Made by a program: the position numbers and the translations under genes
The notes under the pieces: model-generated
Database searches by the model: none
Told to the model about the DNA's origin: nothing
The model's input: only the letters and a program-made list of their open reading frames with translations
NCBI GenBank assembly: GCA_039649045.1
Contig: JBBWZL010000010.1
Location: 17,811-81,810 of the forward strand
Length of the DNA: 64,000 bases
Direction of reading: 5' to 3'
From: Verrucomicrobiota bacterium
GTDB lineage: Bacteria; Verrucomicrobiota; Verrucomicrobiia; Chthoniobacterales; UBA10450
In this document: positions 2,586 to 55,160 of the stretch, in pieces
How the letters are laid out: every line of letters begins with the position of its first letter
Position numbering within the stretch: position 1 is the first letter of the stretch

Positions 2586-3060
2586 CGAGCGAATCAGCCC
2601 GGAGGCCGTCGCAAGACAATATCGCACGCCGGCGCCTCCGCCAAATCCACCTGCGCAACCGGCCTCGCCATTAATTTGCAGATGACGAACCGCGCTGGGT
2701 ATGTTGTCTTGAGCGTATGCACAAGGACCTGCCGCCGGGGATTTTTGATTTAAGCGAGCGGTCCACGCGATATGCCGCCGGCTTTTGTTTTGTCGTCGGC
2801 TTTATCCTCAGCGTGATCGTGCGAGTGGGGTTCGTTCTAGCCCGGGAACATTTCTCGCAAGTCTCGCCCTGGTCGGGCGAATGGTAAGCCGCAATAACGG
2901 TGTGACTGCGGAATGGGATTGCATCTTTATGCGGTTGATGGAATCTCTTCCCGCGTTCATGTTCGCCATCCGCAAATAATCAGAGAAATCTGAGAGCCTC
3001 AACAGGCGTAGCGGACCAATCCGAATTCTCCCCCCGAGCGATTTGGAAATAAGAAATTTT

Positions 3061-3471
3061 ATGATGCGAAATATTGTCCTGATCCTTGTCTCCACCGCAG
3101 TTGCCGGCGCCGCTATGCTCCACGCCGCGCCGACCCCAACGCCGAGTGCCCAAAAGGCGTCGACCAAGAATAAGACAGAGTTGAAACCGTCGTCGAAGAA
3201 TGTGACCGCGGCGGCGCCGCTGACCGCAGGCTGGTCACTCGCCAATGGCATCTGGGTTCATAGCGACGGCTACAAGTACGTAAACGGTCAGGTGATCCGG
3301 ACCGGCAACCAGACGCACAAACGAGTGCCGAAGCCGCCCACCAAGGCGCAGCTGGATGCCACAACGAAAAAGGCGCCGCCTTCACCCAAAGACCCCGCCG
3401 CGGCGAAGGCCGCCGAGCGGGAACGCAACCTCACTCCGCGGCCCGCGCCGCAAACCGGCACGCATCTGTAG
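3061..3471 (+). CDS. small secreted Lys/Pro-rich hypothetical protein
   Basis: ORF-track 3043..3471 trimmed to the first ATG. Signal-peptide-like MMRNIVLILVSTAVAGAAMLHA. No recognisable domain. A degenerate copy of its 3' end lies at 3932..4163. Confidence 0.5.
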   Translation: MMRNIVLILVSTAVAGAAMLHAAPTPTPSAQKASTKNKTELKPSSKNVTAAAPLTAGWSLANGIWVHSDGYKYVNGQVIRTGNQTHKRVPKPPTKAQLDATTKKAPPSPKDPAAAKAAERERNLTPRPAPQTGTHL

Positions 3472-4842: not shown

Positions 4843-4915
4843 GGGCCTATAGCTCAGCGATTAGAGCAGGGGACTCATAATCCCTTGGTTCCAGGTTCGA
4901 ATCCTGGTGGGCTCA
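4843..4915 (+). tRNA. second tRNA(CAT) copy, diverged at 3 positions; possibly impaired
   Basis: Same cloverleaf as 3539..3611, with three differences: D-loop AGCGATTA (G19 to A, normally a conserved tertiary partner of the T loop), variable loop TGGTT, and acceptor 3' side TGGGCTC (creates G2:U71). Confidence 0.75.
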
Positions 4916-4917
4916 GT

Positions 4918-4949
4918 TCAGAATCAGAGGTCAGAAGTCAGAGGTCAGA
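4918..4949 (+). repeat. heptamer word array (TCAGAGG/TCAGAAG) x ~4.5
   Basis: TCAG recurs at 4918, 4924, 4931, 4938 and 4945. The array fills the whole gap between the tRNA 3' end and the TTG start of the next ORF. Confidence 0.9.
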
Positions 4950-26853: not shown

Positions 26854-26894
26854 AGGGGGAGGAATCTAATTAGAAATTACGAAGTAGAAAGTAG

Positions 26895-27110
26895 AATGGA
26901 GCCGGCGGGAGCCGAGCGACATAGACGAAGCCCGCAGGGTGAGCGAGCGGGAGCGAGCGAATCAATGGAGCGAGCGGGACGAGCGACATAGACGGTCAGC
27001 GCGAGCGTAGCGGAGAGCGAAGCGGGAGCTTCGCGAATCAATGGAGCCGGCGGGAGCCGAGCGACATAGACGAAGCCCGAAGGGTGAGCGAGCGGGAGCG
27101 AGCGAATCAA
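26895..27110. repeat. three tandem ~70-76-bp units upstream of icd
   Basis: Units at 26895-26964, 26965-27040 and 27041-27108. Units 1 and 3 differ by about one base. All share ATGGAGC...GAGCGACATAGACG...GCGAATCA. The block is flanked on both sides by GTAGAAA heptamers in direct orientation. Confidence 0.85.
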
Positions 27111-27293
27111 AGTGGGAAGTAGAAAACGGCGGCGGAAAACGGCGAGCCGGATCTCCACGTTGCCAAACACAATCCCGCGCAACGAGGCGAATAAAGCCAC
27201 GCTGGAGAACGTCGAACAATAACTGGGCCGCAGTTTGGGAGCGGATCATGCATTGGTTCGTGCTGCGGAATCCAAAATACAGGGAGTAAACTT

Positions 27294-43435: not shown

Positions 43436-45250
43436 TCAGCGGATGTTTTCGACAAGCGCGGCCTCCTCCGGCAAAAGCCGCTTCCGGTCGACCTCGCGCA
43501 TCTCCGTGGCTGCATCCTCGCTCCGCCCGTTCGCGGCCAGGACCGCGGCATGCACCGCCAGGGCAGACGGCGTCAACGCGCCGCGGGCGACCTGAATACC
43601 CGAATACGCATCCATTGCGTCGCTCAATTTTCCCAGGCGAAACCGCGCCAGAGCGAGCAGAGTCCGATGCGGCAGACTGGACGGCTCTCGCTGGACGAGC
43701 TGAGCAGCAAGTTGCTCAAGCGTTATCAGTTCTTGGTTATTTGTTACTCGTTCTGACCTCTGACTTCCGTCCTCCGACCTCTGCGATTGCTGCGCATTCA
43801 TGAGCAGCAATCGCGTATACGCTTCGTCGTTTTGCACCGCCGGGTCGTTAGGCCAGATCGCCAGCATCTCCGCGAGGACGGCATGGATTTTCTTGGTCTC
43901 GCCCGTGACCTGCGCGAGCCGCAGCCGGCCCTGGTGCGCCGCGCGCAGCCGGGGCGACTCGGCCACGGCCTCGTCGTAGGCAGCGCGCGCCACATCGGTC
44001 ACGCCATTTTTTTCCGCATAACCTGCGAGCGTAATCAGCTTGCCCGGATCGCCCCGGGCTGCCTCCAGCGCGCGCTGCCAATTATTTTCCGACGCGGCTT
44101 TTTCGCCGAGCTGTGCGTTGCAGCGCGCGAGATACATTTTCTGCACGAACGGATCGAGCGGGTAACGATCGCGATCGAGCAATTCCTTGATCTCTTTCCA
44201 GCGGCCGAGACCGCCGAGCGCATCGACGTATTGCAGGAAAAGCTCGCGCGATTGCAGCGCTCTCTCGATCGGGATGGCATCGAGCACGCGCTGGAATTCA
44301 CTCTTGCCATTCAACCACGTCGCGAGCGCCGCCGCTTCATCCGGTGTTCCATCTTTCCATTGCGCGACCGCTTTCGCGATCAGCTCGGCGCGCGTTTCAG
44401 GTTGCTGGCGCATCTTCAAATCGACCGCGAGCAATTTCTGCGGCGCGCGGGCGAGGGGATGCGCCTCGAGCTTTTCCGACAAATCGAGCGGCGCGATCGG
44501 GAAAGTTTCCGGGATTTTTTCCGATGAAAGCGCTGTCTGCGCCAGGACCGTGAGCGCATCGACCCCGGCGGCATCGCCCGTTTCCGATATTTTCTTCAAC
44601 CAGGACCAGGCTTCGCTGCGCCAGTTTTCGTTGCCCGCGGAAATCGCGATGTCCAGCAGCGCGGCCTGTAGTTTTCCCCGGCCGCTCGCCCGCGCATCGC
44701 CGAAAATTTTTTGCAACGCATCGTGCGCTTCGATAGCGGCGCCCTGCCGGGCGGAGAGTTGCGCCGAGAGCAAATAGTCCAACGGCATAACGGGGCCGTT
44801 CGTTCCACTGAGGAGCGCGCGGATCGCGCGGGTCGCGCGGGCATCGTCGCCCGCGAGTAGCGCGATGGTCGCCTCATCGGTGAGATCAACGCGGGTGAGA
44901 CGGGTGCGTTGCTCTAGCCGGTCCCAGAATTCCAGCGCCTGCGCCTGCCGGGTTCGCGAAAGAAAACGGGCGATGGCCCGAATCGCTTCCGGTTCGTCCG
45001 GCCACAATTGATAAGCGCTCGCCACTTCCTTGCGGGCTTCGTTCCAATCCTCTTTCTCCATCAGCGCAAAGGCCGTGCGAGCGTGGCGTCGCGCCTGCCA
45101 GGCCTTGATACCATGCAGGACAGGCCGCCCGCCGAAGATTCCGCCGAGCCCGAGAACGAGGACGAGGAGGAGCGCGACGATAATGCGTTTGCGCCTGCGA
45201 GTTCGAAGCCGCAGCTCCTCCTCGGTCAACATGAAGTCGTCGGCGCGCAT
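43436..45250 (-). CDS. membrane-anchored TPR-like repeat protein (possible exosortase-system accessory)
   Basis: N-terminal TM helix (IIVALLLVLVLGLGGIFGG), then a helical-repeat composition. Last gene of the exosortase operon. Contains an in-frame heptamer array (43753-43787) encoding SQRSEDGSQRSE. Confidence 0.65.
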   Translation of the reverse strand: MRADDFMLTEEELRLRTRRRKRIIVALLLVLVLGLGGIFGGRPVLHGIKAWQARRHARTAFALMEKEDWNEARKEVASAYQLWPDEPEAIRAIARFLSRTRQAQALEFWDRLEQRTRLTRVDLTDEATIALLAGDDARATRAIRALLSGTNGPVMPLDYLLSAQLSARQGAAIEAHDALQKIFGDARASGRGKLQAALLDIAISAGNENWRSEAWSWLKKISETGDAAGVDALTVLAQTALSSEKIPETFPIAPLDLSEKLEAHPLARAPQKLLAVDLKMRQQPETRAELIAKAVAQWKDGTPDEAAALATWLNGKSEFQRVLDAIPIERALQSRELFLQYVDALGGLGRWKEIKELLDRDRYPLDPFVQKMYLARCNAQLGEKAASENNWQRALEAARGDPGKLITLAGYAEKNGVTDVARAAYDEAVAESPRLRAAHQGRLRLAQVTGETKKIHAVLAEMLAIWPNDPAVQNDEAYTRLLLMNAQQSQRSEDGSQRSERVTNNQELITLEQLAAQLVQREPSSLPHRTLLALARFRLGKLSDAMDAYSGIQVARGALTPSALAVHAAVLAANGRSEDAATEMREVDRKRLLPEEAALVENIR

Positions 45251-45681
45251 CAGAAGTCAGAAGTCAGAGGTCGGAACTGCGGAATGATTCGTTCTTCCGT
45301 ATCATTCCGCCGAGCATTCGTCCGATCTCAGCGCCACGCGAAGTAAGTTGCTTATGTTGATCGTGCGAGATGTAACCGCACGCCAGGGCAAAATCGAGGG
45401 ATGAATCCGTTTCGCTGTTTTCAACGTCACAATCCGTCAGCTTGCTTAGAAAATGCGCTTCATAAGGTCGTTTGGCCCACGCTTCTCGGAGATTCAAACA
45501 GACAGATCTCGAGGATCGCCTGATTTGACTGGTCAAAGCGTATTTTTCTTCTGACGGAAAAGTTTTTGTGGCGTCAAAAATCTCCATCGCGAGCTGATAC
45601 GCGGATTTGTAAACCTCCAGATCCTTAGCCGTTTCAATCTTCACGCTTTCTGACCTCCGCTTTCTGACCTCCGACCTCCGG
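45250..45681 (-). mobile_element. IVS-like cassette: four-helix-bundle gene bracketed by inverted heptamer arms (45250-45277 and 45647-45681)
   Basis: The arms are 21/28 complementary. On the sense (minus-strand) RNA, 3 of the mismatches become G:U pairs. The cassette lies exactly between the exosortase and TPR ORFs. Calling it a mobile element is inference. Confidence 0.35.
45264..45644 (-). CDS. four-helix-bundle protein (23S rRNA intervening-sequence protein / Avd family, TIGR02436-like)
   Basis: KDLEVYKSAYQLAMEIFDATKTFPSEEKYALTSQIRRSSRSVCLNLREAW..FL..CDVENSET matches the family pattern. Trimmed to GTG 45644, which overlaps the exosortase stop by 11 nt. Its TGA stop lies inside the heptamer arm. 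Confidence 0.75.
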   Translation of the reverse strand: MKIETAKDLEVYKSAYQLAMEIFDATKTFPSEEKYALTSQIRRSSRSVCLNLREAWAKRPYEAHFLSKLTDCDVENSETDSSLDFALACGYISHDQHKQLTSRGAEIGRMLGGMIRKNESFRSSDL

Positions 45682-47376
45682 TTCAACCGTTTCCCTGAGG
45701 AGTTCTGCGAATTTGTCTTCGGCCATTTGATCGTCCATCGGTTGCGAGCTGACAAAAATCACTTCCAGAACTTGCTGCCCCAGATTCCGAATTCCATTTC
45801 GCACCGTCCGGAAACGCGCCTTCATGGACCAATCGGGCTGCACGCCTTCGGCGAGCTGTAGATCTGGCCGCGGCTCATCGGCGTGCGTCTTGTCTTCCTG
45901 CAAACAAAAAAACGTGTGCGCGACAGCGTTCCCGTTGCCCTGCCGAAAGGTGATGTGCCGCGCCACGATCGGAATATTCTCGCGCGCGAGATAAGTTTTT
46001 GCGCCGCGATCGGCGAGTTGCTGCCAGCCGATGCTCGGCAGGCAAATGTCCGGCCGGTGGGCCCGCGCCCGCAGCACGCTCGCGCTGCCTGGATTCCAGC
46101 GAAAGAAAAACAGATAATTGGTCGTCGAAAAACCGGGTGCGGCGTCTGCAATCGTTCTCCAAGTCACTTCGCGGCCCAAATCGAACCGCAATGTTTGCCG
46201 GACCGATTCATCGATTTTGATTTCGCGAAATCCCGGCGCCTTTTCCGGCGGACGAACACTCCAATTGCCGCGCGCAGTGAGATTCTTCTCATGCGCCCGA
46301 TACCACTCATGGGCTCCAGCTTCGACCGCAACGAGCCAGAGAAGGCAAAGGATGAAGGATGAAGGATGAAGGAGGAAGTGGGGCCGGAGGTCGGAGGTCG
46401 GCTCTGACTTCTGACTTCTGCCCTCTGCCCTCCGACCTCCGTTTCCGCCTTCCGCCTTCCGCCTTCCGCCTTTCTCCAACAACGCGGCGAGCAAGAGCGA
46501 GCCGCAGAAAACAGCCGCAACAATCGTGTATCCGGCAAAATCGTGCCATCGATCCACGGCCGAGATGCTTTGGGTCGCGGCGATCCAGACGAGGAAAAAG
46601 GCGCGCGCAAAGTTGGCGATGATGGCGATGGCCAGCGCGCCCAGAACAAGAAGAATTCGGCGCGTAACCGACAGCCGCTTCAGTTCGCCGAAGAGCAAGC
46701 CAATCATGATCGAAGTCTGCAATGAACGCACGCCGCTGCACGCTTCGTTCACGCCGACCAGGCCAGTGCTGACGCGGATGAGATTGCCTTCGAGTTGCGC
46801 GGGAATGCCGAAAAGGGTGATCGTCTCACTCGCCACCGCCGCGACGATCCGCATAAGGCCCTGGACGATTGGTTGCTCAATCGGAGAAACCCACGGCACC
46901 GCGACGAAAAAAAACGCGACGGGAAAAGCGAAATGCCGCACCCACGGTTTGCCGCCCGCCAACCAAAGCACGAGCAAAGTCATCGTCACCACCACGCCTG
47001 TGTGCACCCAACCCAGCGGCCGCCAATCCGGGTTCGCGATTTCAAACAACCGGATCGGCAACAGGAGCAGCAGCGCCCCAATTGCAATCGCGATCGCAAT
47101 TCCGCGTTTCCTCCTTCCTCCTTCCTCCTTCCTACTTTCCCCCCGATCGTCCCAGCGCAACCAAAACAAAAACAGCGCGAAGAACGGAACGAACCATCCG
47201 TAGCTGTATTGCTCGTTGTCCGACCACTCGCCGCTCAGTTGCCGGCAGAGAACAAACCAGAGCGCGAGCAATAACAGGCCCGACAGCAGAATCCTCGAAA
47301 GTTTGCTTCGGCGCACCGACTCTGGTTTCAACCGAATCGAAATGGCGTCGTTCACGGCGGGGCGAAGATATTCCAC
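45634..47376 (-). CDS. exosortase (PEP-CTERM type) fused to a C-terminal EpsI-like domain
   Basis: Multi-TM N-terminal half with NEACSGVRSL (catalytic Cys), ANFARA (Asn/Arg) and WHDFAGY (His) motifs. The C-terminal ~230 aa are EpsI-like. Three word-array segments are in frame (47110-47137, 46349-46474, 45647-45681). Confidence 0.85.
   Translation of the reverse strand: MEYLRPAVNDAISIRLKPESVRRSKLSRILLSGLLLLALWFVLCRQLSGEWSDNEQYSYGWFVPFFALFLFWLRWDDRGESRKEEGGRRKRGIAIAIAIGALLLLLPIRLFEIANPDWRPLGWVHTGVVVTMTLLVLWLAGGKPWVRHFAFPVAFFFVAVPWVSPIEQPIVQGLMRIVAAVASETITLFGIPAQLEGNLIRVSTGLVGVNEACSGVRSLQTSIMIGLLFGELKRLSVTRRILLVLGALAIAIIANFARAFFLVWIAATQSISAVDRWHDFAGYTIVAAVFCGSLLLAALLEKGGRRKAEGGNGGRRAEGRSQKSEPTSDLRPHFLLHPSSFILCLLWLVAVEAGAHEWYRAHEKNLTARGNWSVRPPEKAPGFREIKIDESVRQTLRFDLGREVTWRTIADAAPGFSTTNYLFFFRWNPGSASVLRARAHRPDICLPSIGWQQLADRGAKTYLARENIPIVARHITFRQGNGNAVAHTFFCLQEDKTHADEPRPDLQLAEGVQPDWSMKARFRTVRNGIRNLGQQVLEVIFVSSQPMDDQMAEDKFAELLRETVEPEVGGQKAEVRKRED
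46349..46474. repeat. 18 phase-locked heptamers (126 bp) forming an imperfect hairpin inside the exosortase ORF
   Basis: Units in order: AGGATGA x3, AGGAGGA, AGTGGGG, CCGGAGG, TCGGAGG, TCGGCTC, TGACTTC x2, TGCCCTC x2, CGACCTC, CGTTTCC, GCCTTCC x3, GCCTTTC. The core CGGAGGTCGGAGG and CCTCCGACCTCCG are perfectly complementary. Confidence 0.9.
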
Positions 47377-48496: not shown

Positions 48497-49270
48497 ATGT
48501 CATCCGGAGTTGCGGCGGGTTCGTCCGAAAGATTTCAGCAGATCCTCGGCATCCGCTTCTTCGATGGCACTCCGGCGGGGGCGGTCGCTTATCTCAAGCG
48601 CGTTGGCGGATACGTGGTTGTGCCCGCGGCGCCAGCGCTGGTGAAACTGCGTTACGATGAAGCTTTTCGCGCGGCGCTTGTGCAATCCGATCTCGCAATT
48701 GCCGACAGCGGATTGATGGTCTTACTCTGGAAACTTTTTGAACGCCGGCGCATTTCCCGCATCTCCGGGCTCGCTTACTTGAAGCGCCTTCTGGAGCTGC
48801 GGGAAATCCACGAGGCTGGAAAAGCCTTTTGGATTCTTCCCGCGGCATCCGCCGCCGAGAGCGCAAAGAAATGGCTCCGCGATGCGGGATTCGGCGTGTC
48901 GGACGAAGACTTTTACATCGCGCCTTTTTACGGAGCGGAGGTGAGCGACGAAGTTCTGGCTGCGGCCATCAATGCCCGGCGGCCCACCGACGTCATCATT
49001 GCCATTGGCGGCGGGCCGCAGGAAAAACTGGGATTATTCCTCCGAGACCATCTCGGATATCGCCCGGCCATCCATTGCATCGGGGCCGCGCTCGGTTTTC
49101 TGACGGGCGACCAGATCGCGATCCCGGATTGGGCCGACCGGCTTTACCTCGGCTGGCTCTTTCGCCTTTTCGCGCAACCGCGCGTGTTCATCCCGCGGCT
49201 CTGGAGTGCGCACGAGCTCCCATGGCTTATTTTCAAGTATCGTGAAAAACTGCCCCCCCTGAAAAACTGA
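48497..49270 (+). CDS. WecG/TagA/CpsF-family (GT26) glycosyltransferase
   Basis: ILGIRFFDGT..AVAYL...GGYVVVPAAPALV.. and ..VIIAIGGGPQEKL patterns. ATG 48497 preferred over TTG 48476. The stop codon lies inside the octamer array. Confidence 0.65.
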   Translation: MSSGVAAGSSERFQQILGIRFFDGTPAGAVAYLKRVGGYVVVPAAPALVKLRYDEAFRAALVQSDLAIADSGLMVLLWKLFERRRISRISGLAYLKRLLELREIHEAGKAFWILPAASAAESAKKWLRDAGFGVSDEDFYIAPFYGAEVSDEVLAAAINARRPTDVIIAIGGGPQEKLGLFLRDHLGYRPAIHCIGAALGFLTGDQIAIPDWADRLYLGWLFRLFAQPRVFIPRLWSAHELPWLIFKYREKLPPLKN

Positions 49271-49692
49271 AAAACTGAAATGCTGAAAGACTAAAAAATG
49301 CGCCTCCCAGAAGCGTTTCGAGAACGAACGAAAAAATATGCTTCAGCGATCATTCGGTTGTATGCGCAATTGCCGAGGACCCGGAAGGAAGTGGAAGTGT
49401 TGGGACATCAACTTCTTCGGTCTGGTACCTCAGTCGCAGCGCTCACCCGCGAAGCATCACGAGCTCGATCTGATGCTGAGTTCTGTTCCAAGATCGACGG
49501 AGCATTGCAGGAAGCGGATGAATCTCAGCTATGGATTGAACTTCTGCGGGAGGACTGCGGCATCGACGGCGCGCCTATCGAACACCTGCATCGGGAAACA
49601 AGCGAACTAATTGCGATCCTGGTAACAATGGCAAACAAGACAAAGCGCACTCTTAGATAATTTCAGCTTTTCAGTATTTTCGCGTTTCAGCC
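49259..49692 (+). mobile_element. IVS-like cassette: four-helix-bundle gene bracketed by inverted octamer arms (49259-49297 and 49661-49692)
   Basis: Left arm (CTGAAAAA x2, CTGAAATG, CTGAAAGA, CTAAAAAA). Right arm (TTTCAGCT, TTTCAGTA, TTTTCGCG, TTTCAGCC). 24/30 complementary. Sits exactly between the GT26 and carbamoyltransferase ORFs. Mobility is inference. Confidence 0.35.
49298..49660 (+). CDS. four-helix-bundle protein (23S rRNA intervening-sequence protein / Avd family)
   Basis: FRERTKKYASAIIRLYAQLP....VLGHQLLRSGTSVAALTREASRARSDAEFCSKI..ALQEADESQLWIELL matches the second common subtype of this family. Confidence 0.75.
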   Translation: MRLPEAFRERTKKYASAIIRLYAQLPRTRKEVEVLGHQLLRSGTSVAALTREASRARSDAEFCSKIDGALQEADESQLWIELLREDCGIDGAPIEHLHRETSELIAILVTMANKTKRTLR

Positions 49693-49699
49693 TTTGCCC

Positions 49700-51490
49700 A
49701 TGCTCATCCTCGGCCTCAATGCTTATCACGGCGATTCCGCGGCGTGTTTAATCAAGGATGGCCGGCTTGTCGCCGCGGCGGAGGAGGAGCGGTTTCGGCG
49801 CATCAAACATTGGGCCGGCCTGCCCACTCAGGCGATCGATTATTGCCTGCGCGAAGGCGGCGTCACGCTGCAGGACGTCGATCACATCGCGATCAATCGG
49901 AAACCTGGCGTGAACAACTGGCGGCGGCTTGCCTTTGTCCTGCGGCATCGGCCCGATCCGCGGTTGATGATGCAGAAAGTCCGCAACATTCGCAGCGCTT
50001 CATCGGTGCAGGAAGCTCTCGAGCGCGCCTACAAGGTGTCGTTAGGCGCCCAGGTCCATCACATCGAACATCATCTCGCGCATCTCGCCTCCGCCTTTCT
50101 CGTCTCGCGCTTCGACGAAGCGGCCTGCATTTCGATCGATGGCTTTGGCGACTTTGCCAGCACGGCGATGGGGAGCGGCCAGGGGAACCGGATCGCGATC
50201 GAGGAGCGCGTTTATTTTCCGCACTCGTTAGGCATCTTTTATTCGGCCCTGACCCAGTTCATCGGCTTCCCGCACTTTGGCGACGAATACAAAGTGATGG
50301 GCCTGGCGCCGCTGGGCGAACCGAAATATCTCCAGGAAATGCGCCAGCTCGTTCGGATCCAGCCGGACGGCACCTTCAAGTTGAATCTCAAATATTTCCG
50401 GCATCACACCGATAACGTTTCCTACACTTGGAACGACTGCGCCCCGGAAGTCGGCACGCTTTACACCGGGAAATTGAGCGAGCTGCTCGGATCCGAACGC
50501 GGCGAAGGCGATCCTCTCGAACAACGACACAAGGACCTGGCTCGCTCGGCCCAGGCGATGTATGAGAAAGCGTTTTTCGGTCTGCTGAACGCGCTTCATA
50601 AAAAACATCCTTCGCCGAACCTCGCGCTCGCGGGCGGGTGCGCGATGAACTCGGTCGCGAATGGCAAAGTCTATTTGCGCACCCCGTTCCGAAAAATGTA
50701 TCTGCCCGCTGCCGCGGGCGACGCCGGCGGCGCCATCGGCGCAGCGGCGGTTGTGCAAGCACAACTCGCGGAGGTCAGACGTCAGAAGTCAGAGGTCAGC
50801 CAGAGGCGCATCGCCTTGGACGATGCTTATAGCGGTCCGCAGTTCTCCGACGAGGAAATCCATCAACTGCTGCGAGATCGCGGCGTTGTCTCATCTGACC
50901 TCCGATCTCCGACCTCCGACCTCTCGGTCGAACACATGACCGATAGCAACGAACTTTGTCGCCGCACCGCAGCCGCCATCGCAGATGGCAAAGTCGTCGG
51001 TTGGTTTCAAGGACGGATGGAGTGGGGGCCTCGCGCTCTCGGGAACCGCTCGATCCTGTGCGATCCGCGGCGTTGGGACATGAAGGAAATTCTGAATCTC
51101 AAGATCAAGCGCCGCGAATCGTTCCGTCCGTTCGCGCCTTCGATTTTGCGCGAAGCTGTCGCCGAATGGTTCGAGCAGGACGATGACGTGCCCTTCATGA
51201 TGGAAGTCTTCCAAGTTCGCCCGATAAAACGCGCTTTCATTCCGGCGGTCACGCACGTCGATGGCTCCGGCCGGCTCCAAACCGTGCATCGCGAAACCAA
51301 TCCGCTTTATCACCATCTGATCTCCGACTTCTATTCGCTGACCTCGGTCCCGATGGTGTTGAACACCTCCTTCAACGAAAACGAACCGGTCGTTTGCCGC
51401 CCCGAAGAAGCGCTCGATTGTTTTCTGCGCACGAAAATGGATCTGCTCGTCATGGGCAATTTCCTGATCACCCGTTCGAACGCTCTCTAA
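49700..51490 (+). CDS. carbamoyltransferase (NodU/CmcH family)
   Basis: MLILGLNAYHGDSAACL.., EERFRRIKH, GWFQGRMEWGPRALGNRSIL.DPR, VTHVDGSGRLQTV. ATG 49700 preferred over TTG 49694. Two in-frame heptamer arrays at 50768-50802 and 50891-50925. Confidence 0.85.
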   Translation: MLILGLNAYHGDSAACLIKDGRLVAAAEEERFRRIKHWAGLPTQAIDYCLREGGVTLQDVDHIAINRKPGVNNWRRLAFVLRHRPDPRLMMQKVRNIRSASSVQEALERAYKVSLGAQVHHIEHHLAHLASAFLVSRFDEAACISIDGFGDFASTAMGSGQGNRIAIEERVYFPHSLGIFYSALTQFIGFPHFGDEYKVMGLAPLGEPKYLQEMRQLVRIQPDGTFKLNLKYFRHHTDNVSYTWNDCAPEVGTLYTGKLSELLGSERGEGDPLEQRHKDLARSAQAMYEKAFFGLLNALHKKHPSPNLALAGGCAMNSVANGKVYLRTPFRKMYLPAAAGDAGGAIGAAAVVQAQLAEVRRQKSEVSQRRIALDDAYSGPQFSDEEIHQLLRDRGVVSSDLRSPTSDLSVEHMTDSNELCRRTAAAIADGKVVGWFQGRMEWGPRALGNRSILCDPRRWDMKEILNLKIKRRESFRPFAPSILREAVAEWFEQDDDVPFMMEVFQVRPIKRAFIPAVTHVDGSGRLQTVHRETNPLYHHLISDFYSLTSVPMVLNTSFNENEPVVCRPEEALDCFLRTKMDLLVMGNFLITRSNAL

Positions 51491-52158
51491 TGATTGAGCC
51501 TCTCTGTTACGGAGCCGTTAATCAGCAAATTGCCTCGCGGGTACCTGCCGGTGCGCAACGGATTCTGGATATCGGATGCGGCACGGGGACGCTTGGGCGG
51601 GAGCTTAAAAAGCGACGCCAACGAGAAATTATTGGAGTGACGCATTCGGAAGAGGAAGCAGTTTTGGCTTCCGAATATTTGGACGACGTTCTCGTTTGCG
51701 ATTTGAATCGCCCTGCTTTGGATTCCCTCGGGCTTTTCGATTGCATTATCTGTAGCCACGTCCTTGAGCACCTCTCCAATCCTTCCGAGCTGCTCATACA
51801 ATTAAAGCAACATCTCTTGCCTGATGGCATTCTCCTGGTCGCATTGCCCAACATTCTTTTTTGGAAACAACGATTCGAGTTCATGCGCGGCCGTTTTCGC
51901 TATACATCCGGAGGGCTCATGGATTCGACCCATTTTCGATTTTTTGATTGGGAGAGCGCATGTAACCTGATCGAAGCCGCCGGGTACAAACTGGTAGAGC
52001 GCGCGGCCGAGGGAAGTTTTCCCATGCCCTTTTTGCGCCGATTAGTGCCTCGCTTTGCGGGAAGGATGGACGAAATGGCCTGCTCGTTCCTGCCAGGGCT
52101 TTTCGGCTGGCAATTTGTTTTTGTGGCGATGAAACCTGAAGCACCTGGGCATTCCTGA
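51490..52158 (+). CDS. class I SAM-dependent methyltransferase
   Basis: ILDIGCGTGTLGREL motif. ATG overlaps the upstream TAA (TAATG). Confidence 0.75.
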   Translation: MIEPLCYGAVNQQIASRVPAGAQRILDIGCGTGTLGRELKKRRQREIIGVTHSEEEAVLASEYLDDVLVCDLNRPALDSLGLFDCIICSHVLEHLSNPSELLIQLKQHLLPDGILLVALPNILFWKQRFEFMRGRFRYTSGGLMDSTHFRFFDWESACNLIEAAGYKLVERAAEGSFPMPFLRRLVPRFAGRMDEMACSFLPGLFGWQFVFVAMKPEAPGHS

Positions 52159-55100
52159 TGTGCGGTATCGCAGCCATTTTTGGATACGGCGTTGATGCTC
52201 CACCGGTCGATCGTGATGAGCTGATCGCCATTCGCGATCGGATGATTCGCCGCGGGCCCGATGGCGAAGGCCTCTGGATCTCGGAGGATCGCCGCGTAGG
52301 CCTGGCCCATCGACGCCTCACGATCGTAGATCTCACGGACGCGGGCCTGCAACCGATGTGGACCAGCGATCGCGCGCTCTGCGTTTCGTTCAACGGCGAA
52401 ATCTACAACTATCCTGCGCTACGCGCGCAATTATCCGAGCGTGGTTATCAGTTCAGATCGAATTGCGACACCGAAGTATTACTCCATCTCTATGCCGAGA
52501 AGGGGCCTGAGATGGTCCACGATCTTCGCGGGATGTATGCCTTCGCCATCTGGGACGTAAAGCAGCGGAGCCTGTTTTGCGCGCGCGACCCCTTCGGGAT
52601 CAAGCCGCTTTACTATGCGGACGACGTCCGAACGATTCGCATCGCCTCACAGGTCACGGCTCTCCGGGCAGGAGGGCACATCGATACGACGCCTGAGCCT
52701 GCCGGGCACGTTGGATTTTTTCTCTGGGGCTCGGTGCCGGATCCGTTCACCCTTTATCGCGGGATCAGCGCACTGCCCGCAGGCCACACGCTCACAATCC
52801 GCGAAGGGGGCACACCCGAGATTCGTTCGTATTGTTTTATCCCGGATATCTTGCGTGAAGCAGAATTAGAGATCGGAGATCAGAAGTCAGAAGTCGGTGG
52901 GGAACAACGCGAAATTCTTCACGCCGCGTTGCGCGACAGCGCCGAGCATCATCTTATGGCCGATGTGCCGGTGGGCATTTTCCTTTCCGCCGGACTCGAT
53001 TCATCCACGCTCACCGCGCTGATCAGCGAACGGCATGAGGACGTCCGCACGGTCACACTCGGCTTCAACGAATACCGCGGCGGCGAACAGGACGAGACGC
53101 TGCTGGCGGAAGTGGTCGCGCGCACTTGCAAAACCAATCACCAAACCATCTGGGTCACGCGCCGTGATTTTGAAGGAGACGCCGCCCGGCTCTTCGAGGC
53201 AATGGACCGGCCGACGATCGATGGCGTGAACACCTATTTCGTCAGCCTCGCGACCAGGCGGGCCGGACTGAAAGTGGCGATCTCCGGCCTGGGCGGCGAC
53301 GAATTATTCGGCGGTTACCCCAGTTTCCAGGATGTTCCTCGCATCGCCAACCGACTCCGCCATTTCCGCCGATTCGGAAAACTTGCGCGCGGCTTTCGCA
53401 TCGTAACGCAGGATGTGATCAAACATTTCGCTTCGCCGAAGTACGCCGGAATTTTCGAATACGGCTCGAGTTATCCCGGCGCCTATTTGTTGCGCCGCAG
53501 TCTTTTCATGCCGTGGGAACTCCCCGAATTTCTCGACCCGGAATTGGTGCGCGAAGGCTGGGCGCGCTTGAACACTTTCGGCGAGTTGGCGGGGATTTGC
53601 GATTCGCTCGATTCCGAGCGGCTCAAAGTCTCGGCGCTCGAACTTTGCTGGTATATGCGCCACCAGCTTTTGCGCGATTCCGATTGGGCCGGCATGGCCC
53701 ATTCGCTCGAAATCCGCGTGCCGCTCGTCGATGTGAAGCTGCTGCGGGAAATTGCGCCCTTGCTCGCTTCGCCGCGCCCGCCTGGAAAACGCGACATGGC
53801 GTTGTCTCCCCGCACGCCATTGCCCGAAGCGGTCCTCTCTCGTCCAAAGACCGGTTTCACCATGCCGGTGCGCGACTGGCTTTTGCAATCGTTCGATCCC
53901 CTGTCGGCCGGCGAACGTGGTCTGCGCGGTTGGGCGCGTTACGTCCATGGTGAATTCGTGCAGGACTCCGGCGCGGCCTCTACGGTCTTGCGCCGCTCGC
54001 GCGCCACGCGCGCTCGTGCCACTGGCGCGCGCAAAATTTCACGGATCCTTGTTTATCGCATCGGCCAGCTCGGCGACACCATCGTGGCGTTGCCCGCCAT
54101 GTGGGCGATAAAGGAAAATTTTCCTGACGCGGAGCTGACGCTGCTTTGCGATCAACATCCGCACACCAACTACATTCTCGCTTCCGGCCTGCTGCGAGAC
54201 GCCGGAATATTTCACGATTTCCTGGCGTATCCGGTGGAGAAACTTGGCACCAGCTCTGCGCGCCGCGCGACTGAGCTCGTGAAAAAATTGCGCGAACGGA
54301 ATTTTGATACCCTCGTCTATCTGGCCCCATCGGCTCGAGGGCCGGGGCGCGTCCGGCGCGATCGCTGGTTTTTCCGCGCGGCCGGCATCCGCACTTTTAT
54401 TGGGATGACCGGTTTCCCGCGGTTTCAGAAAAGGACCAGCGGCGCCGCGCTCGCCAGCGCCCCGCGCGAATTCGAATTATTGCTCCTGCGTCTGCGTGAA
54501 TCCGGGTTGCGTGTCTCTTTGCAAAATCCACGCTTCGACCTCGGGCTCGGCCAGCGCGAAGAAACAGACATAGCGCGCTGGCTCGAGACGCAACCTCAAC
54601 CCGACGGCCATCGTCGCTGGATTGCGGTAGGCCCGGGATCCAAAATGCCGGCGAAGCAATGGCCCCTCGAACGTTACGACCAGGTCGTGCGCGATCTGAT
54701 TGCCGGCTTCGACATCTGGCCCGTCGTTTTCGGCGGGGAAGAGGACCGCGAGATTGGCGATGGATTGATTGAGCGCTGGGGTCGCGGCTATAACGCCGCC
54801 GGCGCGCTCGGTGTTCGCGCCGCTGGCGTCGCCTTAAAACGTTGCGAGCTTTACCTCGGCAACGACACCGGCACGATGCACCTCGCTGCCGCCGCCGGCA
54901 TCCGGTGCGTTGCCGTCTTCTCGTCACGCGAGCGTCCCGGTCTGTGGTATCCTGCCGGAAGTGACAACCGCGTTTTCCGTTCCGAGATCGACTGCGAAGG
55001 ATGCGGCCTGAAGGTGTGCATCACTCGAAACATCGAATGCCTTCGCCGGATTGATTCACAATCGGTCACGGCTGCGTGCACCGAGCTGCTGGCTGGTTCG

Positions 55101-55160
55101 GCTGTGCGGGATAAGATTGCGCAATCCACTTCCACGGCGCTTAATTCTCTTGCGGTTTGA
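52158..55160 (+). CDS. asparagine synthase-family glutamine amidotransferase fused to a GT9 (heptosyltransferase-like) domain
   Basis: MCGIAAIFGY Ntn start and an AsnB-like synthetase domain (SAGLDSS). From ~aa 650, ILVYRIGQLGDTIVALPAMWAIKENFPDAELTLLCD.. and ..LYLGNDTGTMHLAAAAG match GT9. One in-frame heptamer array at 52866-52900. Confidence 0.8.
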   Translation: MCGIAAIFGYGVDAPPVDRDELIAIRDRMIRRGPDGEGLWISEDRRVGLAHRRLTIVDLTDAGLQPMWTSDRALCVSFNGEIYNYPALRAQLSERGYQFRSNCDTEVLLHLYAEKGPEMVHDLRGMYAFAIWDVKQRSLFCARDPFGIKPLYYADDVRTIRIASQVTALRAGGHIDTTPEPAGHVGFFLWGSVPDPFTLYRGISALPAGHTLTIREGGTPEIRSYCFIPDILREAELEIGDQKSEVGGEQREILHAALRDSAEHHLMADVPVGIFLSAGLDSSTLTALISERHEDVRTVTLGFNEYRGGEQDETLLAEVVARTCKTNHQTIWVTRRDFEGDAARLFEAMDRPTIDGVNTYFVSLATRRAGLKVAISGLGGDELFGGYPSFQDVPRIANRLRHFRRFGKLARGFRIVTQDVIKHFASPKYAGIFEYGSSYPGAYLLRRSLFMPWELPEFLDPELVREGWARLNTFGELAGICDSLDSERLKVSALELCWYMRHQLLRDSDWAGMAHSLEIRVPLVDVKLLREIAPLLASPRPPGKRDMALSPRTPLPEAVLSRPKTGFTMPVRDWLLQSFDPLSAGERGLRGWARYVHGEFVQDSGAASTVLRRSRATRARATGARKISRILVYRIGQLGDTIVALPAMWAIKENFPDAELTLLCDQHPHTNYILASGLLRDAGIFHDFLAYPVEKLGTSSARRATELVKKLRERNFDTLVYLAPSARGPGRVRRDRWFFRAAGIRTFIGMTGFPRFQKRTSGAALASAPREFELLLLRLRESGLRVSLQNPRFDLGLGQREETDIARWLETQPQPDGHRRWIAVGPGSKMPAKQWPLERYDQVVRDLIAGFDIWPVVFGGEEDREIGDGLIERWGRGYNAAGALGVRAAGVALKRCELYLGNDTGTMHLAAAAGIRCVAVFSSRERPGLWYPAGSDNRVFRSEIDCEGCGLKVCITRNIECLRRIDSQSVTAACTELLAGSAVRDKIAQSTSTALNSLAV

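Follow-up and report, generated by a model that had tools for sequence, protein, structure and literature searches.

The 64,000-nt stretch of Verrucomicrobiota DNA analysed here (contig JBBWZL010000010.1, positions 17,811 to 81,810 of the forward strand; hereafter the window) carries a gene for a carbamoyltransferase of the TobZ/NodU/CmcH type. Within this gene lie two short arrays of heptamers, the arms, which are translated in frame and which present one word in opposite orientations on either side of a conserved piece of coding sequence. The genome (3.93 Mb, 58% GC, 94% complete) is that of a soil bacterium which its closest relatives place in Chthoniobacterales. The comparisons described below indicate that the arms are probably dispersed heptamer-array repeats, which are tolerated in the linker between the two domains of the enzyme and turn over at the level of DNA, with the split inverted pair being a by-product rather than a device. 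The features of the gene are the following:

49694-51490, plus strand: TobZ/NodU/CmcH-type O-carbamoyltransferase, the host gene; open reading frame (ORF) of 598 aa counted from a TTG start
50766-50800, plus strand: arm 1 (site 1), five NGTCRGA heptamer units, four of them clean (50773-50800); translated as ..AEVRRQKSEVS.., residues 359-370
50801-50893, plus strand: host coding segment between the arms, ..QRRIALDDAYSGPQFSDEEIHQLLRDRGVVS..; conserved sequence with which the C-terminal region begins, and a hot spot of synonymous divergence
50894-50925, minus strand: arm 2 (site 2), four units of the arm 1 word on the minus strand; the coding sequence on the plus strand reads ..SSDLRSPTSDLS.., residues 400-411

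The host gene belongs to an exosortase/exopolysaccharide (EPS) locus, and the database protein P0002 is the same carbamoyltransferase, starting at ATG 49700. Two Pfam domains, Carbam_trans_N (PF02543, residues 5-351, E = 2.6e-60) and Carbam_trans_C (PF16861, residues 426-594, E = 2.2e-71), occur in one chain, which is the architecture of TobZ/NodU/CmcH O-carbamoyltransferases. Full-length matches in PDB (E = 3e-84 to 1e-75) include TobZ, NovN-like and GdmN structures, and the protein can be aligned end to end to 9s2t, 7xb6, 3ven and 7vyj. All invariant columns of a 69-sequence alignment are kept and there is no internal stop; judging from these retained residues, the gene is likely functional.

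Both arms fall between the two Pfam domains, the first of which ends at residue 351 while the second resumes at residue 426, and gaps of 7-10 residues lie opposite both arms in the solved homologues. An AlphaFold2 model, built from 69 close homologues and of mediocre confidence (mean predicted local distance difference test score, pLDDT, of 64), places arm 1 at the end of helix 343-362 and in low-confidence coil just past the last helix of the N-domain, with coil of low to moderate confidence at both arms. Such positions may be those of a permissive linker. In the explanation favoured here, extra residues would be tolerated nowhere in the carbamoyltransferase but in this linker, which joins the Kae1-like N-domain to the YrdC-like C-domain. 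The relative G005 carries a third in-frame array near the C-terminus of the enzyme (L147 11515-11546, TTTCTAC x4.6, the AAGTAGG word), which encodes ..LFHLLLSTFYFQTG.. in place of the conserved ..LYHHLISDFYSLTS.. helix; therefore, the linker is not the sole region that can be overwritten.

The first-pass annotation placed the arms at 50768-50802 (GCGGAGG TCAGACG TCAGAAG TCAGAGG TCAGCCA) and 50891-50925 (TCATCTG ACCTCCG ATCTCCG ACCTCCG ACCTCTC), with 88 nt between them, and these sequences and coordinates are exact. When set in the phase of the word, arm 1 reads GGTCAGA CGTCAGA AGTCAGA GGTCAGC (50773-50800), preceded by a degenerate unit, and arm 2 reads GGTCGGA GGTCGGA GATCGGA GGTCAGA on the minus strand (50894-50921). 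The word of arm 1 is GGTCRGA and that of arm 2 is its complement. Both arms are in frame in the carbamoyltransferase ORF, as residues 359-370 (AEVRRQKSEVSQ) and 400-411 (SSDLRSPTSDLS). A search for inverted repeats returned arms of 29 nt that are 79% complementary and lie 95 nt apart, and both arrays were also detected by Tandem Repeats Finder (TRF). A pattern of three word units with up to two mismatches matches 26 times in the window, as compared with 0.02 matches expected from shuffled sequences, which rules out a chance or low-complexity artefact. The segment between the arms had been regarded as host sequence, and the arms as something other than the termini of one inserted element. Both views agree with the homologues, since the DAYSGPxFSDEEI block is found in every one of them, with or without arms. 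A single inserted element with cargo is accordingly rejected, since the block between the arms consists of host sequence shared by all homologues.

The arms belong to a class of repeats that is distributed throughout the genome. There are 325 arrays of period seven, built from dozens of different units. According to gene positions from the authors' own crude gene caller, 151 of them are intergenic (46%), although approximately 86% of the genome is coding, while 41 lie at gene edges and 133 are inside ORFs. Arrays of the NGTCRGA word number 45, with a modal size of four units. Many of these are placed exactly between adjacent genes (27 intergenic, 9 at gene edges, 9 inside genes), and the arms in the carbamoyltransferase are part of the intragenic minority. 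When neighbouring arrays were compared in 43 pairs, the two repeat one word in inverted orientation in 25 cases and in direct orientation in a single case, which makes the inverted pair the native arrangement. Other genes, too, contain compact in-frame hairpins of the GGTCRGA word; the one at C24:29589-29671 encodes ..EVRGLRSEVSEKRTEDNPISDFRPLTSD...

The proposal that both arms are lineage-specific additions is supported by comparison with homologues and by the closest sister, P0010, in which both sites are empty. At site 1, the distance from the GDAGGAIGAA motif to the [YF]xGP motif ranges from 17 to 39 residues in 29 loci of diverse taxa (mode 17-19) and is 27 in the window; thus, site 1 is a generally variable linker. 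At site 2, 26 of the 29 loci from other taxa share an exact distance of 48 residues between GP and GWFQG, as against 53 in the window. This length is normally fixed, and it is expanded only in Chthoniobacterales. The suggestion that the arms are insertions in variable loops needs correction for site 2, which has a fixed length outside the lineage and did not receive a clean insertion. When the gene is aligned to the closest empty allele, that of P0010 (approximately 90% identical in DNA along its length), some 11 ancestral residues (KQEIRNEGCEV) are seen to have given way to the 16 of arm 2, so that the ancestral stretch ..KQEIRNxGCEV.. is partly replaced. Equal-length, non-repetitive sequence across taxa at both sites was not found in the homologue alignment.

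Turnover at the two sites was followed in 120 close homologues (75-90% identity) and on a tree of 80 orthologues, from which variable columns had been removed beforehand. In plus orientation, site 1 contains one to four periods of RSQKSEV/GGQRSEV. In other homologues it holds a minus-orientation array (TSDLRSPTSD), a complete hairpin (RSQKSEVSKE..PTSDLRPPTSG), a nested element of about 75 nt, peptides of other words (TNNQSPITNN, VESGKEKGEN, KLKFEIRNSK) or nothing. At least five distinct repeat words occur there, in both orientations. The contiguous hairpin at site 1 is found only in relatives such as G030 and G032, and there are relatives that still have, besides a complete hairpin at site 1, a separate minus-orientation array at site 2. 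Site 2 has its ancestral sequence in some homologues; in others it holds an array in minus orientation, at times a longer one, or other repeats. On the tree, the state of site 2 changes at least 24 times and the plus state of site 1 at least 21 times. The sister of the window protein is the doubly empty P0010 (support 94), and the sister pairs P0015/P0067 and P0027/P0035 likewise differ in their arm states, as does P0013 from P0064/P0065. Empty alleles of site 1 retain one or two units (GTCAGAGCTGACTTCTGG in P0010, TCAGAGGTCAGC in G026), which could be what deletions left behind or could act as seeds. What had looked like an octamer array at site 2 of G026 turned out to consist of ancestral TQELRNE codons and not of a repeat.

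The pattern of conservation points to constraint at the level of nucleotides rather than of the peptide, with DNA-level turnover and block exchange. In the eight orthologues for which DNA was available, the arms match the six constant positions of the word at rates of 0.90, 0.94 and 0.87 for codon positions 1, 2 and 3, values that carry some ascertainment bias, as the arrays are defined by their likeness to the word. Third-codon identity in the backbone of the same orthologues is 0.52-0.77. The third positions of the word are thus kept, which means that the arrays are young or renewed in each lineage, or else constrained as nucleic acid; selection on the protein would not have this effect. Third-codon identity in the enclosed segment is only 0.27-0.62; in each of the 36 orthologue pairs it falls short of the backbone mean, and among windows of 26 codons its median rank is at the 5th percentile. 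DNA identity to P0010 and P0004 drops from approximately 0.9 to 0.5-0.75 across the arms and the enclosed segment. Such divergence is consistent with an exchange of blocks between lineages that had diverged, or with mutagenesis associated with hairpins.

The reading frame is under selection, and in-frame TGA codons have been purged. In minus-orientation units, the Y of YGA is C in seven of seven cases when YGA falls in frame, and T in none; in the other phases, 19 are C and 9 are T. Among intergenic arrays, the A/T form is the more frequent, by 38 to 24.

The data show directly that the arms belong to the repeat class, are specific to the lineage, turn over rapidly, keep their word at the level of nucleotides and have been purged of stops. 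In the explanation favoured here, the repeat class consists of arrays of about 28 nt, each made of four heptamers of one word, in this case GGTCRGA, with the inverted pair as native arrangement. A heptamer array runs through the three frames every 21 nt and consequently yields the same hydrophilic heptapeptide in any frame, RSQKSEV in one orientation and SDLRPPT in the other. Both are nearly stop-free, so that only in-frame TGA codons need to be edited out, and it is owing to this property that the arms could be tolerated in the linker. Arrays would be gained, lost, swapped for other words and exchanged between lineages by DNA-level processes, namely copying from or recombination with other arrays of the same word and deletion across hairpins. 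Selection would then retain just the frame-preserving, stop-free versions in the two loops. The inversion around 88-93 nt of host sequence would be a by-product of this turnover, the arms would be neutral for the enzyme, and the message would have no selected function of its own.

The arrays may be compared with several known types of bacterial repeats. Heptanucleotide repeats such as GGGAATC of Xanthomonas and GGGGAYT of Nostoc, together with the cyanobacterial short tandemly repeated repetitive sequences (STRR), have been described (Rehm et al. 2015, PMC4692102), as have TAACTGA repeats (MacGregor 2015, PMC4679880). Like STRR and other long simple sequence repeats, the arrays considered here consist of tandem 7-nt units with a bias towards four, are dispersed genome-wide and lie mainly between genes near the ends of ORFs, with some of them paired in inverted orientation and a minority located inside genes. 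Unlike those repeats, they comprise many words in one genome, and these words are tied to cassettes carrying PF05635 genes. Further differences are that the arrays in the carbamoyltransferase are translated in frame at two recurrent loops of an enzyme, inverted around conserved host codons, and that their word is not G-rich, so that no quadruplex is possible.

Rickettsia palindromic elements (RPE), which Ogata and colleagues are said to have reported in 2000, are reportedly hairpin-forming repeat DNA inserted in frame in housekeeping genes. The peptide that an RPE adds lies in a surface or linker region and leaves the protein intact, and close relatives differ in whether they have the element. 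The arms resemble RPE in being in-frame translated repeats of the hairpin type, located in what may be a permissive linker and variably present among close relatives. However, RPE are units of 100-150 bp inserted whole as one contiguous in-frame hairpin, whereas here the unit is a 28-nt array of a word, the two arms occupy separate sites with 88-93 nt of conserved host codons in between, no target duplication is seen, and several words compete for one loop.

REPINs, doublets of repetitive extragenic palindromic (REP) sequences mobilised by REP-associated tyrosine transposases (RAYT), have been proposed to be non-autonomous mobile DNA (PMC3116915), and they too are short inverted doublets that form hairpins, are dispersed and are mostly extragenic. 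In contrast to REPINs, the arms are tandem heptamers instead of a fixed palindromic REP, and the gene associated with their word is a PF05635 four-helix-bundle gene and not an array-flanked RAYT. Four weak matches to the Y1 transposase family PF01797 are present in the genome, none of them flanked by arrays, on which grounds a REPIN/RAYT mechanism was rejected. Three of these matches (C36:217223-217516, C11:24318-24536 and C26:114008-114289) lie inside open frames of 906-1468 aa, which is unusual for IS200-type genes. A mechanism like that of diversity-generating retroelements, with the arms as target, was rejected as well, since no match to the reverse transcriptase family PF00078 occurs in the 94%-complete genome.

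The 23S rRNA intervening sequences (IVS) of Leptospira and Coxiella consist of an S23p/PF05635 ORF between inverted termini. An IVS-like layout exists 5 kb upstream of the arms, where a PF05635 gene stands between arrays of their word. No such ORF lies between the arms themselves; the enclosed 93 nt are carbamoyltransferase codons, and, unlike in IVS, the arms are translated. A literature search found no paper describing heptamer repeats in Verrucomicrobia, and none on in-frame inverted arrays around conserved host codons or on a link between heptamers and PF05635.

Genes of the PF05635 family (23S rRNA IVS or Avd-like four-helix bundles) number 16 in the genome, and 14 of the 16 lie between inverted arrays of short period, with a word particular to each gene. 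The same layout of gene and word occurs in three relatives. Two such cassettes and two further occurrences of the GGTCRGA word are located near the carbamoyltransferase:

45248-45682, minus strand: GGTCRGA-word PF05635 cassette, with gene 45309-45626 (minus strand) between inverted arrays 45248-45275 and 45649-45682
46383-46436, strand not assigned: compact in-frame GGTCRGA-word hairpin inside the exosortase gene (45634-47376, minus strand), found by TRF and word-pattern search
49259-49695, plus strand: second PF05635 cassette, with gene 49325-49621 between inverted CTGAAAAA / TTTCAGCT octamer arrays; abuts the carbamoyltransferase start
52872-52898, plus strand: solo GGTCRGA-word array in the next large ORF (52158-55160), found by TRF and word-pattern search

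The cassette at 45248-45682 is the nearest gene-carrying copy of the GGTCRGA word, 5 kb upstream of the arms. Across related loci, the word inside the carbamoyltransferase can be set beside that of the neighbouring cassette. Three loci, those of the window, G030 and G032, have GGTCRGA arrays in the carbamoyltransferase, and 3-5 kb upstream of it each has an intact cassette with GGTCRGA arms, whose PF05635 genes are of one subtype (78-92% identity). In G026, a remnant of the GGTCRGA cassette is left, and neither site of the carbamoyltransferase is filled. Both sites are also empty at the P0010 locus, where a different PF05635 gene is bracketed by AAGTAGG arms and further AAGTAGG arrays lie in the vicinity. 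G005 is without the GGTCRGA cassette and has other words in the carbamoyltransferase, including the octamer word of a cassette 2.2 kb downstream. This link between cassette and arm words, as read from the loci compared, is suggestive and not established.

Two side observations concern these cassettes. The G026 remnant (L145, reverse-complemented, 2850-3110) has kept GGTCAGA-type arms, and its PF05635 gene is internally deleted (approximately 205 nt as compared with 318 nt). The cassette at 49259-49695 occupies the gap from the GT26 gene to the carbamoyltransferase start, a gap that amounts to 12 nt in the P0010 locus, an empty site; this octamer cassette is present in G026, and in G005 it lies 2.2 kb downstream of the carbamoyltransferase.

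Several observations weigh against the reading of the arms as tolerated repeats with a by-product inversion. To our knowledge, no copying mechanism is known for such arrays. The arms are preserved better than expected of neutral DNA, and some force maintains or renews them, a function at the level of nucleic acid being possible. The plus state of site 1 and the minus state of site 2 tend to switch together (4.7 same-way versus 0.1 opposite contrasts of 8, p ~0.06), as would also suit a selected pair; joint switching is at the same time expected if one tract spanning both sites is exchanged, given the short distance of about 100 nt from one to the other. Many orthologues are taken from metagenome assemblies, in which chimeric contigs could inflate the count of state changes. 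The arms of G015 are of the GGTCRGA word, yet its 99%-complete genome has no cassette of that word, and its only related PF05635 gene (54% identity) has GAGGATG arms. In the window genome, clustering of arrays near a cassette is seen only for GGTCRGA, with six other arrays within 15 kb of the cassette against 0.26 expected, and the other eleven cassettes show little or none. A general rule of same-word clustering near cassettes was rejected on this basis; the sum over all 12 cassettes is 10 against 1.87 expected, and a strict-word test was null. The last two observations bear equally on an alternative that is doubtful but has some weight, in which a word-specific system tied to the neighbouring PF05635 cassette would write or maintain the arms. 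The protein would recognise its own word, arrays would be copied in cis so as to bracket any segment, and the bracketed block would be exchanged or mutated as a unit. The word shared by cassette and arms over 5 kb would be explained in this way, as would the agreement of the word in the gene with the presence and word of the nearby cassette in six of seven loci, the local excess of GGTCRGA arrays, the retention of the word at all codon positions and the synonymous-divergence hot spot in the enclosed segment. Besides the G015 exception and the lack of clustering elsewhere, this alternative has to contend with a 106-aa helical bundle without obvious catalytic activity and a genome without reverse transcriptase, while the correlation comes from seven related loci of common ancestry.

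A selected stem-loop in the message is considerably less probable still. In this case, a long bulged helix would close the inter-domain part of the mRNA and would be an RNase III site, a stability site or a point at which translation pauses between the domains. The first-pass annotation had suggested that the arms clamp the mRNA into a stem-loop, and such a stem is indeed predicted: in the fold of 50755-50940 the arms are paired in a helix bulged at every seventh base (minimum free energy -75.3 kcal/mol, z = -3.27). Arm duplexes in orthologues with both arms range from -36 to -61 kcal/mol, IVS-like cassettes are flanked by the same arm architecture, and the combination of a plus array at site 1 with a minus array at site 2, written (+,-), is the commonest filled state. 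Orthologues with this pair fold strongly (z = -3.2 to -5.9), except for G030 (z about -0.1), whereas the (-,-) allele P0026 (z = -0.3) and the empty allele P0010 (z = 0.0) fold weakly. The stem is nevertheless not conserved, as close relatives have empty, (-,-), (+,0) and (0,-) states. Duplexes of arms from the same orthologue are no better than those between orthologues (-41.7 versus -39.9 kcal/mol; 339/5040 permutations), so the pairing follows from the shared word and not from co-evolution, and covariation lends the stem no support. Moreover, the antisense strand folds better (-86.8 kcal/mol, z = -4.12), since A.C mismatches of the mRNA become G.U pairs there. No Rfam family matched at the gathering threshold in the whole window, nor at E <= 1 in 50600-51100. 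A stem can form, with no comparative sign of selection on it. Least probable of all, and hardly to be expected, is a contingency locus, in which the frame would shift whenever a heptamer is added or lost, so that carbamoylation of the exopolysaccharide is toggled. Seven is not a multiple of three, the gene lies in an exosortase/EPS locus, and unit number does vary among relatives, for example from one to four copies of the 7-residue period at site 1. Against this, there are only about four imperfect units with neighbours unlike each other, and the same arrays are mostly intergenic and of fixed size genome-wide. All of the 120 homologues are full-length and in frame with length changes of whole codons, although this observation has limited power.

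In many bacteria, no long simple repeats are commoner than heptamer tandem repeats, and how these arose has yet to be explained. The carbamoyltransferase offers a clean natural experiment in this regard, as two loops of a conserved enzyme have been repeatedly filled, emptied and refilled with different words among congeners. It also illustrates how proteins absorb repeats, by way of a frame-independent peptide and purged stops. In most of the compared loci, the array word follows a four-helix-bundle cassette a few kb away, which gives testable handles on how the repeats spread. Were PF05635 (Avd or rRNA-IVS-type) cassettes an undescribed repeat-propagating system, overwriting permissive loops of nearby genes, keeping the arms fresh and bracketing host blocks that are then swapped or mutated as units, they would account for these long-unexplained repeats; at present this is a tentative and rather unlikely prospect. 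For the enzyme, the outcome is probably an ordinary one, namely additional linker residues, with no evidence of a regulatory RNA.

Other repeat structures were noted in the same genome. An element of approximately 73-79 nt (ATGGAGCC..GACATAGAC..GCGAATCA) is nested in heptamer arrays. Three tandem copies occur within a GTAGAAA array upstream of a gene (window 26884-27125), single copies adjoin GGTCGGA arrays elsewhere in the genome (C1:57545-57623 and C6:46903-46982), and one or two in-frame copies are found in the site 1 array of relatives (L086 of G032, L087 of G018). It looks like a second-order element that targets the arrays. In this respect, it recalls the small dispersed repeats of cyanobacteria that Elhai and colleagues reportedly described in 2008 as nested within heptamer repeats.

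A family of long palindromic elements of about 135 nt is composed of AAGCTCC heptamers, an AGAGAA joint, further units, a variable centre and the mirror image of these parts. Its members (C11:12742-12877, C30:44508-44638, C31:1714-1853, C36:92652-92780 and C11:63121-63240) are intergenic or located at gene starts, and the AAGCTCC word also brackets a PF05635 gene at C27:11557-11841.

Downstream of the carbamoyltransferase (window 51394-55160, compared with L111, L113 and L115), gene content is wholly different among close relatives. The window has a 254-aa ORF and a 1000-aa AsnB-GT9 fusion, and the other three loci have unrelated ORFs, methyltransferase or glycosyltransferase genes; the carbamoyltransferase therefore borders on a region of the exosortase/EPS locus that is variable and undergoes recombination. 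Elsewhere in the window, a four-unit GGTCAGA-word array (4923-4949) begins 8 nt past the 3' end of a tRNA gene (4843-4915).

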